Source: Escherichia phage phT4A. From it: 64,000 nt of DNA. The stretch lies in sequence record NC_055712.1. One strand, given 5' to 3'. Below, in pieces: positions 6,055-37,040 of the stretch. The notes under the pieces are model-generated. The model searched no databases, had not been told where the DNA came from, and was given only the letters and a program-made list of their open reading frames with translations. The position numbers were made by a program, and so were the translations under genes. Positions within the stretch are counted from its first letter, which is position 1. The number at the start of each line of letters is the position of its first letter.

Positions 6055-6154
6055 NNNNNNNNNNNNNNNNNNNNNNNNNNNNNNNNNNNNNNNNNNNNNN
6101 NNNNNNNNNNNNNNNNNNNNNNNNNNNNNNNNNNNNNNNNNNNNNNNNNNNNNN
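6055..6154. other. assembly gap (100 N)
   Basis: Run of exactly 100 N. Confidence 0.95.
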
Positions 6155-9034: not shown

Positions 9035-9421
9035 ATGAATCTGTTTATGACTATTGGCGTTCCGGGTAGTGGAAAAACTACCTGGGCGCATGAGAAAGCC
9101 CGTGAATTGGGTAATACTGTTACGATCTCTCGCGATGATCTGCGTAGCTCTTTGTATAATGCNNNNNNNNNNNNNNNNNNNNNNNNNNNNNNNNNNNNNN
9201 NNNNNNNNNNNNNNNNNNNNNNNNNNNNNNNNNNNNNNNNNNNNNNNNNNNNNNNNNNNNNNGATACCAGGACAGATTTTGAAGTAAAAGAAGAAATTTT
9301 GTTTGACAAGATTTTAGATAAGTATTATCCTGTTATTGCAGTGGACGATAGAGACACTCCGGTCGGGATGTGGCGAGCAAACGGGATTCCGTGCTTACAA
9401 GTCGATTATGGTGATTTCTGA
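9035..9421 (+). CDS. pseT: polynucleotide 5'-kinase/3'-phosphatase, interior replaced by assembly gap
   Basis: N-terminal P-loop MTIGVPGSGKTTWA and C-terminal DTR.D..VKEEI...DDR...VGMWR..G..C.QV..GDF both match recalled T4 Pnk; 100-N gap at 9163-9262 replaces most of the gene. Confidence 0.8.
   Translation: MNLFMTIGVPGSGKTTWAHEKARELGNTVTISRDDLRSSLYNXXXXXXXXXXXXXXXXXXXXXXXXXXXXXXXXXXDTRTDFEVKEEILFDKILDKYYPVIAVDDRDTPVGMWRANGIPCLQVDYGDF
9163..9262. other. assembly gap (100 N) inside pnk
   Basis: Run of exactly 100 N. Confidence 0.95.
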
Positions 9422-10009: not shown

Positions 10010-10286
10010 TCATCCTGGCTCTATGAGCATGGTTCTCCTGGAAGCATTAAAGGCATATGATATCCCTTGTCATTTCGGTGAAGTAAATGTTAATACTATT
10101 GTTGACGAAATCGACAACCCAAATACTTTCATTGCTTGTCTTGTTCGAAAATTCACAAGTTGTTTTCGTCCGAGTCCAGAAAAAGTAGTGATTAGTTCTG
10201 TTTCTGCACATCATCGAGTGTTGGATGATAGAAAGATTCAAGTTTACTGGAAAGTTCTTTATCACGTGGTGTATCATGAAGATTGA
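10002..10286 (+). CDS. hypothetical protein
   Basis: ORF in same-strand array. Confidence 0.3.
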   Translation: MLDHPGSMSMVLLEALKAYDIPCHFGEVNVNTIVDEIDNPNTFIACLVRKFTSCFRPSPEKVVISSVSAHHRVLDDRKIQVYWKVLYHVVYHED

Positions 10287-10782
10287 TGATATTATGTTTA
10301 TGCTTAGAGCGGTAAGCGCTTCTAAGTTCTCTCAATGTGTCTCTGTTAATGTCGGTGCTGCGTTGAGAAATGGTAACGGGCGTGTGTTTGTAGGCGCAAA
10401 TAATACGGTTGATCCTAGTCATCGTTGTACAGATCAGTGCAATCACTTATTAGATGATAACGGGAAACTGAGTGAAGAAAAGCGCCCTGAACATTCACAA
10501 TGGTCAGATCGCAACGAAGTACACGCAGAAATGCGCGTTATTATGCTGGCGGCGTCTCATGAACAAATCAAAGACGCAACTTTGTATACAACTCATTCCC
10601 CTTGCTCACAATGTGCGAAAAATATCGAATTTTGTGTTGCAACAGGTATGATTAAGCGTGTAGTATATCTACATAAATACGATCGTGGTGGCATCGAGTG
10701 GATATGGCGTCTACAGCAATACGGTGCCGAAGTAGTACAACTTGACCCCGAAGAAATGAATAAACATTTCCGGATCAAATAA
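10276..10782 (+). CDS. cd: dCMP deaminase
   Basis: Zinc-binding deaminase motifs HAEMRVI and SPCSQCA; start set at MKIDDIMF by alignment to recalled T4 Cd. Confidence 0.85.
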   Translation: MKIDDIMFMLRAVSASKFSQCVSVNVGAALRNGNGRVFVGANNTVDPSHRCTDQCNHLLDDNGKLSEEKRPEHSQWSDRNEVHAEMRVIMLAASHEQIKDATLYTTHSPCSQCAKNIEFCVATGMIKRVVYLHKYDRGGIEWIWRLQQYGAEVVQLDPEEMNKHFRIK

Positions 10783-10785
10783 CAA

Positions 10786-11139
10786 ATGAGTAAATGTATG
10801 TCTGAACTGAGTGTAAAAGCATCCTTTGAATATGTTTTGATTGAAACCAACGCTAAAGCGGCTGGAACTGAAATTGTATCACCTTCTGGTATTGTGACTG
10901 GTGTTCGTCAACACGGCGAGGAACCGATCTACGGCACAGTGTTATCATGTGGGCCGGATGTACCGGAAGAATATAAAACCCTGCTTATGGGTAAGCGAGT
11001 ACCGCTTCCTCATGCACAAATGGCAAACGTGCCGGATCCTGAACTGATTGCAGGAAAGGCAACAAAAGAAGAAGCTCGCAAGTATCCGGTTAAATATGTA
11101 ACCGCACACTATAAAGCGATTCAAGCAATTTACGAATAA
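10786..11139 (+). CDS. 31: GroES-like co-chaperonin (gp31)
   Basis: Matches recalled T4 gp31 (EYVLI, SCGPDVPEE, C-terminal VTAHYKAIQAIYE); sits after cd as in T4. Confidence 0.8.
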   Translation: MSKCMSELSVKASFEYVLIETNAKAAGTEIVSPSGIVTGVRQHGEEPIYGTVLSCGPDVPEEYKTLLMGKRVPLPHAQMANVPDPELIAGKATKEEARKYPVKYVTAHYKAIQAIYE

Positions 11140-11149
11140 GAGATCCAAC

Positions 11150-11401
11150 ATGGCTAAACAAATTCAAGCAATCATCGCCGATACCGTCGCAAAATCCAAA
11201 AAACTTTTCGACAAAGGCGACATCCTCGAAGCACCGACCCGCATCGATGTAATGACTTCAATGATCATTGATGCTCACCAGGGAAAACTGAATTCCCGTG
11301 CTTCGGAAGTAATGGAATACATCGTACAGTTCGAGGATGTATGCAAATACGCCAAAGCTGTTGATCCGGCTGTTCGCGAAATCTACCGCAAACAGTTCTA
11401 A
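11150..11401 (+). CDS. small protein, possibly rIII (lysis-inhibition accessory) by size and position
   Basis: 83-aa ORF directly downstream of gene 31; assignment is positional only. Confidence 0.4.
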   Translation: MAKQIQAIIADTVAKSKKLFDKGDILEAPTRIDVMTSMIIDAHQGKLNSRASEVMEYIVQFEDVCKYAKAVDPAVREIYRKQF

Positions 11402-11407
11402 AAATAT

Positions 11408-11484
11408 TGGCCCCTTAGCTCAATAGGTAGAGCTAATCACTCATAATGGTTAGGTTCCCGGTTCAAGTCACGGGAGGGGCCACC
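11408..11484 (+). tRNA. tRNA-Met (CAU)-like gene with an apparent extra A in the T-stem
   Basis: Acceptor GGCCCCT/AGGGGCC + A + CCA; D-arm GCTC-AATAGGTA-GAGC; anticodon arm AATCA-CTCATAA-TGGTT; T-arm CCCGG-TTCAAGT-CACGGG pairs perfectly only if the A at 11469 is removed. Confidence 0.55.
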
Positions 11485-11489
11485 AAACA

Positions 11490-11567
11490 AGGCAAGGCAC
11501 TTAGAGAAGCGGGAGGAACAGAATCTGATTCTGTTGGTTGTAGGTGCAAATCCTACCCTTGCCACCA
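11490..11567 (+). ncRNA. tRNA-like element (possible pseudo-tRNA or small stable RNA)
   Basis: Perfect 7-bp acceptor GGCAAGG/CCTTGCC + A + CCA and T-arm-like GTAGG-TGCAAAT-CCTAC, but degenerate D-arm and irregular anticodon arm. Confidence 0.3.
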
Positions 11568-11716
11568 AATTTGGGTGCGTAGCGCAATGCCGTTAAATGG
11601 TTCGGAATATGCAACCTTATCCACAGGAAAGGCTCTGTTGGTATCCGGTAATAGGTTCCCCGGAATGCGGGGTGAAGTAAAGAAACTTCCAGCCCACTAA
11701 TTTTAATGAGGTTTAT

Positions 11717-11998
11717 ATGAAATTTCGTGAAACTGTGAAATACCATAACGCGGTCGAATATACGCAGATTTTTGTTGATATGTCTCCTGCAAAATTCAAA
11801 GAACGCTATGGCATGACATTTAATGAATGGAAAGATGGATTGTCCGATGGGGATTACCGAAAAAACTTCAAATTCAGTGAATGTTATGTGGATGATGACC
11901 CTTACGATCTGGATGTTTGTAGTAAAACAACACCTCTCATTGAGAATTCACCAGAACAGCTTTACGAATCTTGTATTGATTCTGCATACGAAATTTAA
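11717..11998 (+). CDS. hypothetical protein
   Basis: ORF only. Confidence 0.4.
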   Translation: MKFRETVKYHNAVEYTQIFVDMSPAKFKERYGMTFNEWKDGLSDGDYRKNFKFSECYVDDDPYDLDVCSKTTPLIENSPEQLYESCIDSAYEI

Positions 11999-12007
11999 AG
12001 AGATAAC

Positions 12008-12427
12008 ATGAAAAATTTACAAAAACTGTTTAAAATGTCTCCGGCAATTAGAAAAATCATCGGAGAAAGCAATCCAACGAATCGCAATAAAAAGTTGATG
12101 GAACTTTTTGTAAAAGAGTTCGATGATTTTGATTCTGAACTTCGTAAAGCGCTTGAGGCATATTCCAAACAAGGGTTCTTTGCATCGCCGCAAGTGAATA
12201 GTAAGAAAGAGTATAGCGAACGATTCTTTGATTGGGAGATTGTCAACCTCGTTCGTAGAACAAATATATCTCCGAGCAATCACCAATTGATTTCTCTTGA
12301 TACTTCGGTATTCTTCATCCAGTATCTTATTAGTGGTGGTTTCAAAAATCCTGAAATTCCGTTTACAAATGAAGCGGTTAGCAGTGAATTTGATGAATCA
12401 TTTGTATACATCAACACAAACAAATAA
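12008..12427 (+). CDS. hypothetical protein
   Basis: ORF only. Confidence 0.4.
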   Translation: MKNLQKLFKMSPAIRKIIGESNPTNRNKKLMELFVKEFDDFDSELRKALEAYSKQGFFASPQVNSKKEYSERFFDWEIVNLVRRTNISPSNHQLISLDTSVFFIQYLISGGFKNPEIPFTNEAVSSEFDESFVYINTNK

Positions 12428-12462
12428 TCAAATGGCTATCTTCGGATAGCCTTATTTTTGGG

Positions 12463-36940: not shown

Positions 36941-37040
36941 NNNNNNNNNNNNNNNNNNNNNNNNNNNNNNNNNNNNNNNNNNNNNNNNNNNNNNNNNNNN
37001 NNNNNNNNNNNNNNNNNNNNNNNNNNNNNNNNNNNNNNNN
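36941..37040. other. assembly gap (100 N)
   Basis: Run of exactly 100 N. Confidence 0.95.

Follow-up and report, generated by a model that had tools for sequence, protein, structure and literature searches.

Three RNA elements in one intergenic gap of Escherichia phage phT4A: a tRNA-Ile2-type gene, a tRNA-shaped element with a variable anticodon and a covarying structured RNA

A gap of about 300 bases between two protein genes of Escherichia phage phT4A (NC_055712.1) holds three successive RNA elements on the same strand as the flanking genes, and the nature of these elements is the subject of this report. The window, that is, the whole stretch of DNA analysed here, comprises 64,000 nucleotides (nt) of this genome, and all features are given in its coordinates and on its + strand. 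The first element, E1 (11409–11485), is a transfer RNA (tRNA) gene with an encoded CCA end and the anticodon CAT at 11442–11444, recognised by ARAGORN and by alignment to the Rfam tRNA model, and with matches in Escherichia coli. Beyond a 5-nt spacer, AACAA (11486–11490), lies E2 (11491–11567), a tRNA-like gene of 77 nt with A73, an encoded CCA and the anticodon CTG at 11525–11527, which was delimited from the sequence, a sub-threshold Rfam match and a relaxed ARAGORN search. The third, E3 (11567–11703), is a structured RNA of about 130 nt, defined by a 13-sequence alignment, RNAalifold, pair counts and a covariance model. The 351 nt around these elements are 100% identical to several Klebsiella phages of Slopekvirus, the KP15-like genus of T4-type myoviruses within the Straboviridae, and 99.7% identical to KP15 itself. 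An initial annotation had described three elements at this place and suggested that they might be pseudo-tRNAs or small stable RNAs; all three are present, and their sequence, fold support, homology, distribution and polymorphism are what is observed here, from which we infer transcription, processing, modification, charging and all functions.

E1 is a genuine tRNA, passing both a heuristic and a covariance detector. At default settings ARAGORN reports tRNA(cat) at 11409–11485, one base inside the start of 11408 given by the initial annotation, and the match to the Rfam tRNA family (RF00005) extends full-length over model positions 1–71 with 53.3 bits, the gathering score being 29. The folding energy lies below that of shuffled sequences (z = -3.05) and the universal tertiary nucleotides U8, A14, G18-G19, U54-U55-C56 and A58 are all present, with T8, the D loop AATAGGTA and GGTTCAAGTC read in the sequence. 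The element had been called tRNA-Met-like, of which the tRNA part stands and the methionine part does not: by its determinants E1 belongs to the tRNA-Ile2(CAU) class. It shares the whole acceptor stem, GGCCCCU/AGGGGCC, with the chromosomal E. coli tRNA-Ile2, and its overall identity to this tRNA is 81%, as against 73% to the elongator tRNA-Met metT/metU (the E. coli tRNA genes in this alignment were read from K-12 and one other strain); in a BLAST search the annotation under the match was tRNA-Ile in 5632 of the 5632 E. coli records listed. The acceptor pairs C4-G69 and C5-G68, which the E. coli lysidine synthetase TilS requires, are present, and the marks of an initiator are missing, with C11-G24 instead of the fMet discriminator A11-U24 (PMC1635315) and with a paired G1-C72 instead of a 1-72 mismatch. 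The host TilS would be expected to convert the CAU anticodon to lysidine-AU, and AUA would then be read as isoleucine.

In public records E1 is mostly labelled tRNA-Met, while those based on tRNAscan-SE 2 call it tRNA-Ile or Ile2, and, to judge from these determinants, the gene labelled 'tRNA-Met' in over 100 Klebsiella phage records almost certainly specifies a tRNA-Ile2 that reads AUA. Across the open reading frames (ORFs) of the window AUA makes up 12% of isoleucine codons, or 8.1 per 1000 codons. This share is about twice that of host usage, and a supplementary AUA reader therefore makes sense. The closest E. coli relative of E1 is a tRNA-Ile2 with 80.5% identity on the P1-type phage-plasmid p1_000533 (601–676), where it sits about 450 nt upstream of a gene annotated as a Thoeris anti-defense protein of the Tad2 family.

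Where a tRNA has a canonical T stem of 5 base pairs (bp) and a loop of 7 nt, E1 departs from the pattern: Infernal inserts a single 'a' (11470) into the 3' side of the T stem, following C61 and preceding C62, and ARAGORN draws the arm with 4 bp, a G53:A mismatch and an 8-nt loop. The initial annotation had seen this one-base anomaly correctly, setting the extra A one position too early (11469 is C61), and had asked for the base to be checked. The A recurs in over 100 independently assembled genomes and extends to a second genus, being kept in all Slopekvirus copies examined (including KP15, KP27 and phiEap-3) and in the Pseudotevenvirus phages RB43, Miller, CfP1 and Lw1, and absent from RB16-type phages, from E. 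coli and from the P1-like plasmid. The pair next to it changes from C49-G65 in KP15 to U49-A65 in RB43 and Lw1, and the anticodon stem is compensatorily changed too. Over eight E1 homologs the cloverleaf is 97% paired, with five compensatory pairs, compared with 34–50% for controls in which the partners were slid, and the T stem is 100% paired, the A appearing as an insertion in four of the eight with the five other pairs kept throughout. The comparison thus presents the extra A as inherited and no sequencing error, and as a trait that would be tolerated or selected within one phage lineage. That E1 passes both detectors, and that its stems covary across genera while the A is retained, also sets aside the suggestion that it is a pseudo-tRNA. 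The alternative that E1 is an elongator tRNA-Met whose extra A arose as an assembly error is very improbable in our judgement; it draws on the CAT anticodon and on the tRNA-Met label of most GenBank records, but the acceptor stem and the TilS determinants are those of tRNA-Ile2, the nearest E. coli relatives are all tRNA-Ile, the records based on tRNAscan-SE 2 name isoleucine, and the A is present, with flanking covariation, in all these assemblies and in the second genus.

E2 has the outline of a tRNA and an unusual core. Its acceptor is a perfect 7 bp followed by A73-CCA, its T stem a perfect 5 bp closing a 7-nt loop, UGCAAAU, and its anticodon arm is regular, with 5 bp (ACAGA/UCUGU) and a 7-nt loop, AUCUGAU, that contains U33, CUG and A37. 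The initial annotation rightly placed it five nt downstream of E1 with a perfect acceptor, a CCA and a T-arm-like hairpin, giving it 78 nt instead of 77; the degenerate D-arm that it reported is real, the irregular anticodon arm is not. The D stem has just 3 bp, one of them G-U, where 4 bp are expected, C8 (11498) and G55 (11546) stand in place of the universal U8 and U55, and A14 and A21 lack their standard placement. Against the Rfam tRNA model E2 scores 23.3 bits, below the threshold of 29 (E = 0.012 in a search of 351 nt), with its acceptor misaligned; ARAGORN misses it at default and returns tRNA-Gln(ctg) at a 95% threshold. Both programs had been proposed as a check on the two elements, and at default or curated thresholds they accept E1 and reject E2. 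The folding energy of E2 relative to shuffles is marginal (z = -1.79).

Some public records already include E1 and E2; depending on the record, E2 appears as tRNA-Gln (KP15 and KP27 RefSeq), as 'tRNA-Leu, pseudogene' (Pharokka-type annotations) or not at all. The paper describing KP15 and KP27 reports one tRNA found by ARAGORN, to which tRNAscan-SE 2 adds tRNA-Gln(CTG) (PMC5219037). E2 has no specific relative among the tRNAs compared: that it diverged from E1, from the RB16 tRNA-Gly or from one of the E. coli and T4 tRNAs examined was rejected, as no identity exceeded 64%. Outside the anticodon, the identity set of E. coli glutaminyl-tRNA synthetase (GlnRS) consists of U1-A72, G2-C71, G3-C70, G10 and G73, and the E. 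coli tRNA-Gln genes as read carry U1-A72, G3-C70, G10 and G73. E2 agrees with one of these five elements, sharing G2-C71 and having G1-C72, C3-G70, C10 and A73 at the others.

RNase P and the end-trimming enzymes recognise an acceptor/T minihelix with CCA. Since E2 has such a minihelix and an encoded CCA, it should be a substrate of RNase P and of the 3'-end trimming enzymes, and would probably be released as a stable molecule of about 77 nt; the same cuts would also free E1 at its 3' end and E3 at its 5' end.

E2 is restricted to Slopekvirus, with 110 records, and no copy was found in 72,556 plasmids or in 5,426 E. coli genomes. Its slot is occupied by a canonical tRNA-Gly(UCC) in RB16-type phages and by an ORF of 79 amino acids (aa) in CfP1, and holds nothing in RB43. 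Over 85 nt, 104 of the 110 copies are identical and the other six differ at one base. We read the variant base in four distinct phages: in Earwig, phiEap-3 and Miro it is 11526 T>A, at anticodon position 35, giving the leucine anticodon CAG, and in Squirrel_ER27 it is 11525 C>T, at anticodon position 34, giving UUG (Gln). All variants inspected are therefore anticodon substitutions, the sole polymorphic positions of E2, on an otherwise unchanged body. The chance that two random variable sites among 77 both fall in the anticodon triplet is 3/2926, or about 0.001, and in these genomes the neighbouring E3 shows 8 variable sites over its 133 nt.

These variants bear on two alternatives for E2. It may be a divergent but ordinary tRNA-Gln(CUG), charged by GlnRS and used in translation, a possibility that we take seriously and yet consider doubtful. 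The anticodon is the main GlnRS determinant, and the anticodon loop is canonical, with U33, CUG, A37 and U38 as in E. coli glnV/glnX. The calls by tRNAscan-SE 2 (PMC5219037) and by ARAGORN at its 95% threshold agree with it, but the Rfam score is below the gathering value, Pharokka-type annotations flag a pseudogene, the positions 1-72, 3-70, 10 and 73 differ from those of E. coli, C8 and G55 replace universal nucleotides, the same body carries a leucine anticodon in three phages, and CAG is used in the phage no more than CAA (16.3 and 17.6 per 1000), so that no codon demand is obvious. That E2 is a functionless, decaying pseudogene, retained merely since the genus is young, is an unlikely explanation to our minds. 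The sub-threshold scores and the degenerate D arm and core are what decay would produce, and at a local divergence of about 2% little of it would be visible yet; however, the acceptor, anticodon and T stems are perfect, the CCA is kept, no indels were seen, both polymorphic sites lie in the anticodon triplet, which uniform neutral change would give with a probability of about 0.001, and E3 next door has gathered its eight variable sites in the same genomes. The suggestion of a pseudo-tRNA thus fits the covariance score and the pseudogene flags of E2, and fits less well its non-random variation, which speaks against plain decay. Universal tertiary nucleotides are missing from the core of E2 and the GlnRS identity set from its acceptor end, and we therefore think a non-standard or non-decoding mimic of a tRNA the likelier reading, ahead of a routine tRNA-Gln. 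Such a mimic might serve, for example, as a decoy for, or a nuclease-resistant substitute against, a host factor that reads the anticodon loop, or it might be a mere punctuation mark for processing.

E3 is not related to tRNA, and its structure was derived from an alignment of 13 distinct sequences over 141 columns, in which RNAalifold and inspection agree on four helices. P1 joins GGGU (11573–11576) to GCCC (11692–11695), alignment pair 8-132 being G-C in nine sequences and U-A in four. The 5' strand of P2, UCGG-A-AUAUGCA with a bulged A (11602–11613), pairs with 11636–11648, and here pair 40-83 occurs as G-C, C-G and U-A and pair 43-81 as A-U and U-A. P3 is a variable hairpin (11615–11632), of 18 or 19 nt depending on the clade, with compensatory changes at four pairs. 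P4 is the hairpin CCCCG-GAAUG-CGGGG (11658–11672), in which 11 sequences have C-G at pair 98-106 and two have U-A; the initial annotation had picked out this hairpin within 11568–11700, and it proves to be one part of a larger conserved RNA. A fifth helix, P5 (11676–11678 with 11685–11687 and an extension), has A-C and U-U mismatches in several clades and was left out of the model. Over the 26 core pairs 97.3% of the alignment cells are paired, compared with 35–50% for slid partners, and double changes occur at eight pairs. The covariation score is 0.239, with slid controls at 0.068 or less and none of 500 shuffles reaching 0.239. Six invariant G-U pairs are compatible with the + strand only, and the joining strands are long and invariant. 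A covariance model built from the 13 sequences, R1, scores 156.7 bits at E3 and finds no second copy in the window. No Rfam 15 family overlaps E3 at E <= 10 in the window, Drulisvirus or POP12 copies, and beside it the search returned weak terminator-type matches only. On this comparative evidence E3 is a new family of structured RNA outside Rfam, and the third stretch is, in line with the initial suggestion, a candidate small stable RNA that forms a discrete family supported by covariation.

In current annotation this RNA has been taken for protein. A 37-aa ORF (11586–11699) lies within E3, is ATG-initiated in Slopekvirus copies, matches phrog_22418, and is labelled 'anti-CBASS protein acb2' in Roth22 and 'putative tail tubular protein A' in VAC66; in the NTUH-K2044-K1-1 record a start codon placed too early, inside E3, has E3 translated as the N-terminus of tail tubular protein A. 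The ATG-initiated ORF of 37 codons and its phrog_22418 match would be the grounds for regarding E3 as the gene of a 37-aa protein, an idea to which we give practically no credence. Frameshifts interrupt the ORF in RB16, RB43, POP12 and Drulisvirus, a stop codon lies inside it in Lw1, and POP12 and K40 have no ATG, and still the nucleotides are conserved in all frames; substitutions in the stems are compensatory, and a Pfam search gave no match. A frame broken in most clades over conserved nucleotides led us to reject E3 as a protein gene.

E3 occurs in 181 phage records, from Slopekvirus, Pseudotevenvirus (RB16, RB43, Miller and Lw1, and Cronobacter, Citrobacter and Enterobacter phages), the Pectobacterium T4-type phage POP12 and a few Drulisvirus podophages (NTUH-K2044-K1-1, cp48 and K40PH129C1, at 80–82% identity). 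None was found in 72,556 plasmids or in 5,426 E. coli genomes, and pattern scans for distant relatives in IMG/VR, metagenomes and GTDB genomes recovered, apart from two chance matches, nothing beyond these Slopekvirus and Pseudotevenvirus phages. A contig of 178,077 bp in an assembly of 'Flagellimonas marina' (NZ_JBHSCL010000010.1) carries a Pseudotevenvirus tRNA-Gly and E3 locus, is as long as a genome of such a phage, and is probably a contaminating enterobacterial phage.

The surroundings of E3 differ between these genomes. In Squirrel_ER27 (PP738772) exactly 11569–11701 is missing, between AATTT repeats, and the downstream ribosome-binding site (RBS) and gene are unchanged. In POP12 E3 comes after an ORF and before an intrinsic terminator of 11 bp, the only terminator seen after E3; beyond it the next gene has a promoter match of 10/12. 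In Drulisvirus, where about four of more than 300 matching genomes carry it, E3 stands just after the terminator of the capsid gene and replaces 24 nt of E3-less relatives. These comparisons mark E3 as a discrete and dispensable cassette. Squirrel_ER27 is the sole Slopekvirus found without E3 and also the sole bearer of UUG in E2, and is thus a natural double variant. The spacer between the Drulisvirus capsid and tail-tubular-A genes is an insertion hotspot with contents that vary by phage, among them an extra block of about 190 nt (NTUH, NKA196), HNH endonuclease genes (xx20, SRD2021) and E3 (NTUH, cp48, K40PH129C1). There a duplex of about 30 bp (-34 to -36 kcal/mol) closes around E3, formed by the U tract of the capsid terminator and the bases that follow it with the RBS region of the next gene, and from the predicted fold this duplex may be cut by RNase III or may lock translation.

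The placement of E3 raises the question of whether it acts on the mRNA in which it lies. It could be a cis-acting 5' leader, whether a riboswitch, a protein-binding operator or an mRNA-stabilising 5' end left after tRNA processing, and not a free RNA. In Slopekvirus, Pseudotevenvirus and Drulisvirus it ends 6–45 nt before an RBS and start codon on the same strand; invariant joining strands amid covarying helices are typical of ligand or protein pockets; and in POP12 the P1 3' strand, AGCCAU, is by inspection complementary to the 3' arm of the next terminator, a possible antiterminator. The downstream genes, however, are unrelated (a 93-aa ORF, a 140-aa ORF and tail tubular protein A), the POP12 terminator and a fresh promoter stand between E3 and the next gene, no conserved pairing with the RBS was found by inspection, and the E3 deletion of Squirrel_ER27 retains the same RBS and gene. 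We regard a leader as the main rival reading of E3, though a minority one. Because the contexts and the downstream genes differ, we favour a free E3 that is trans-acting or protein-bound, and picture it as an independently folded RNA of about 130 nt with four helices that would have been swapped between T4-type and T7-type phages of Enterobacterales.

For a trans-acting RNA on a cassette that moves between phages, an RNA anti-CRISPR (Racr) comes to mind, in which E3 or its P4 would mimic a type I-E repeat and sequester Cas6e; Racrs against I-E systems exist (PMC10651486). The sequence GUUCCCCG-GAAUG-CGGGG has the 5' flank and five stem pairs of the E. coli K-12 repeat GAGUUCCCCGCGCCAGCGGGGAUAAACCG, so that the 8-nt flank and five of six stem pairs match this repeat, the one compared. 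Against a mimic, P4 has a stem with one pair fewer and a different loop, E3 has no 3' handle AUAAACCG, a stem pair is altered in RB43-type copies, and about 100 other nt of E3 are as conserved as P4, none of which a repeat mimic needs; we consider it very unlikely. As a viral CRISPR-like array of regulatory RNA, E3 was also rejected, since the 'spacer' would hold the covarying strands of P3 and P2, and the preprint lists no case from Klebsiella or T4-type phages.

The genes around the array place it in a familiar part of the genome. In KP15 the locus is preceded by pseT, cd (dCMP deaminase), gene 31 and a small ORF, and followed by two small ORFs and then a terminator. The upstream ORF here (11150–11401, 83 aa) comes directly after gp31 and belongs to phrog_7211, with a weak match to phrog_1457, 'lysis inhibition accessory protein' (E = 7.6e-6); it is probably a homolog of rIII, as in the T4 order 31-rIII. 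The downstream ORF (11717–11998, 93 aa) has its RBS 6–10 nt after E3 and belongs to phrog_3723, with no Pfam match. The first terminator-like hairpin downstream of the array (12434–12451) corresponds to a place at which the KP15 and KP27 records annotate a terminator, and is likely to be the end of the transcription unit that holds the three elements. No match to a sigma-70-like promoter or a terminator was found on the + strand of 10277–12008. With all genes on one strand and no such match within the array, the three elements would be embedded in a polycistronic transcript, and are probably co-transcribed with the flanking genes. A search of the literature for Slopekvirus transcriptomes and for an earlier description of the motif found nothing relevant. 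Elsewhere in the window, three runs of exactly 100 N are masked (6055–6154, 9163–9262 and 36941–37040), the second of which breaks an ORF at 9035–9421 with a P-loop N-terminus, where KP15 has the polynucleotide kinase PseT.

Taken together, we think it rather probable that three RNA genes, a working tRNA-Ile2, the tRNA-shaped E2 and the independently folded E3, make up a modular array in the gap between the rIII-like ORF and its downstream neighbour. Several observations weigh against this reading or parts of it. The T-stem bulge of E1 departs from a canonical tRNA. For E2, the tRNA-Gln call by tRNAscan-SE 2 (PMC5219037) and the fully canonical anticodon loop favour ordinary decoding; Slopekvirus genomes are about 98% identical in the region, the upstream ORFs having 1.6–2% variable sites, and because the genus is so little diverged here the frozen body of E2 is by itself no evidence of selection; and the variable bases are the tip of a possible hairpin of 8 bp with a 3-nt loop, the cheapest place for a change. 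For E3, the folding energy is no better than that of shuffles (z = -0.49), so that thermodynamic stability is not significant, and the structure is supported by covariation instead; the family is narrow, its 13 distinct sequences coming from three or four clades; and an end 6–45 nt before a start codon in most genomes fits a cis-acting leader as well. Published mentions of the three elements, in the literature searched, are at annotation level only.

A bolder proposal would go further. E3 might be the first of a new class of trans-acting phage RNA, a compact fold moving between virulent phages, that neutralises or hijacks a host factor, a defence or RNA-processing protein being the most plausible, and E2 a tRNA mimic with an anticodon under diversifying selection, read not by the ribosome but by an anticodon-loop-specific nuclease or modifier of the host. 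We offer this combination tentatively and think it rather less than probable. As far as our searches show, the conservation of the T-stem A, the anticodon-only polymorphism of E2 and the E3 family are undescribed. The relabelling of E1 matters for arguments on codon usage and host range in phage-therapy genomes, and E1 indicates that a T-stem bulge can be passed on stably in a phage tRNA. E2, with one tRNA-like body and three anticodons in close phages, is a compact system in which to ask whether translation or counter-defence is at work. E3 is a covariation-supported RNA family that pipelines turn into a fictitious protein (phrog_22418, 'Acb2', 'tail tubular protein A'), and its function is open to direct test, given its sporadic spread as a cassette over two phage families and the existence of a natural deletion mutant.

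Among known systems, E1 is closest to E. coli tRNA-Ile2 (ileX/ileY), with which it shares CAU, the acceptor stem, C4-G69 and C5-G68, the T-loop segment GGUUCAAGUC and the 81% identity noted above, and it resembles the tRNA-Ile of phage T4, a gene that also has CAU and is annotated Ile. It differs from them in the sequence of the anticodon stem and in the extra T-stem A; among eight aligned tRNAs the A is confined to the lineage of KP15, phiEap-3, RB43/Miller and Lw1, and the T4 tRNA-Ile, aligned pairwise, lacks it too.

E2 is like the E. coli tRNA-Gln(CUG) genes glnV/glnX in its anticodon loop, A/UUCUGAU, its overall length and its cloverleaf arms, and unlike them in its 62% identity, its 1-72 and 3-70 pairs, A73 in place of G73, C10 in place of G10, C8, G55 and a D stem of 3 bp. 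In Klebsiella, we know of no nuclease that attacks tRNA-Gln or tRNA-Leu. Some phages carry tRNAs that evade host anticodon nucleases or stand in for their targets (PMC10264068, eLife 2023; PMC11555353, Nat Commun 2024), and VapC-mt11 of M. tuberculosis cuts in vivo only tRNA-Gln(CUG) and tRNA-Leu(CAG) (PMC6459853), which is the one precedent found and no more than a precedent. E2 shares with the anti-nuclease phage tRNAs a variation concentrated in the anticodon loop and an accessory, swappable slot; theirs are canonical and chargeable, whereas the core of E2 is non-canonical.

E3, finally, is like the Racr or solitary repeat units (PMC10651486) in being a small structured phage RNA on an accessory cassette, with a P4 that resembles the I-E stem, and unlike them in being about four times longer, conserved throughout and without the 3' handle of the repeat. 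A second comparison is with the stable RNAs C and D of phage T4 (species 1 and 2 RNA), which are encoded directly after tRNA-Arg and are presumed to be released by the tRNA-processing machinery. As homologs these were rejected, a few short strings being shared by eye and the R1 covariance model giving no match at E <= 10 in T4 66000–76000. By analogy with what is assumed for RNAs C and D, E3 most likely acts as a free or protein-bound small RNA. The likeness lies in the arrangement, small non-coding RNA genes following tRNA genes head-to-tail on the same strand, and the difference in the reach of E3, which is also found without tRNAs and in T7-type podophages.

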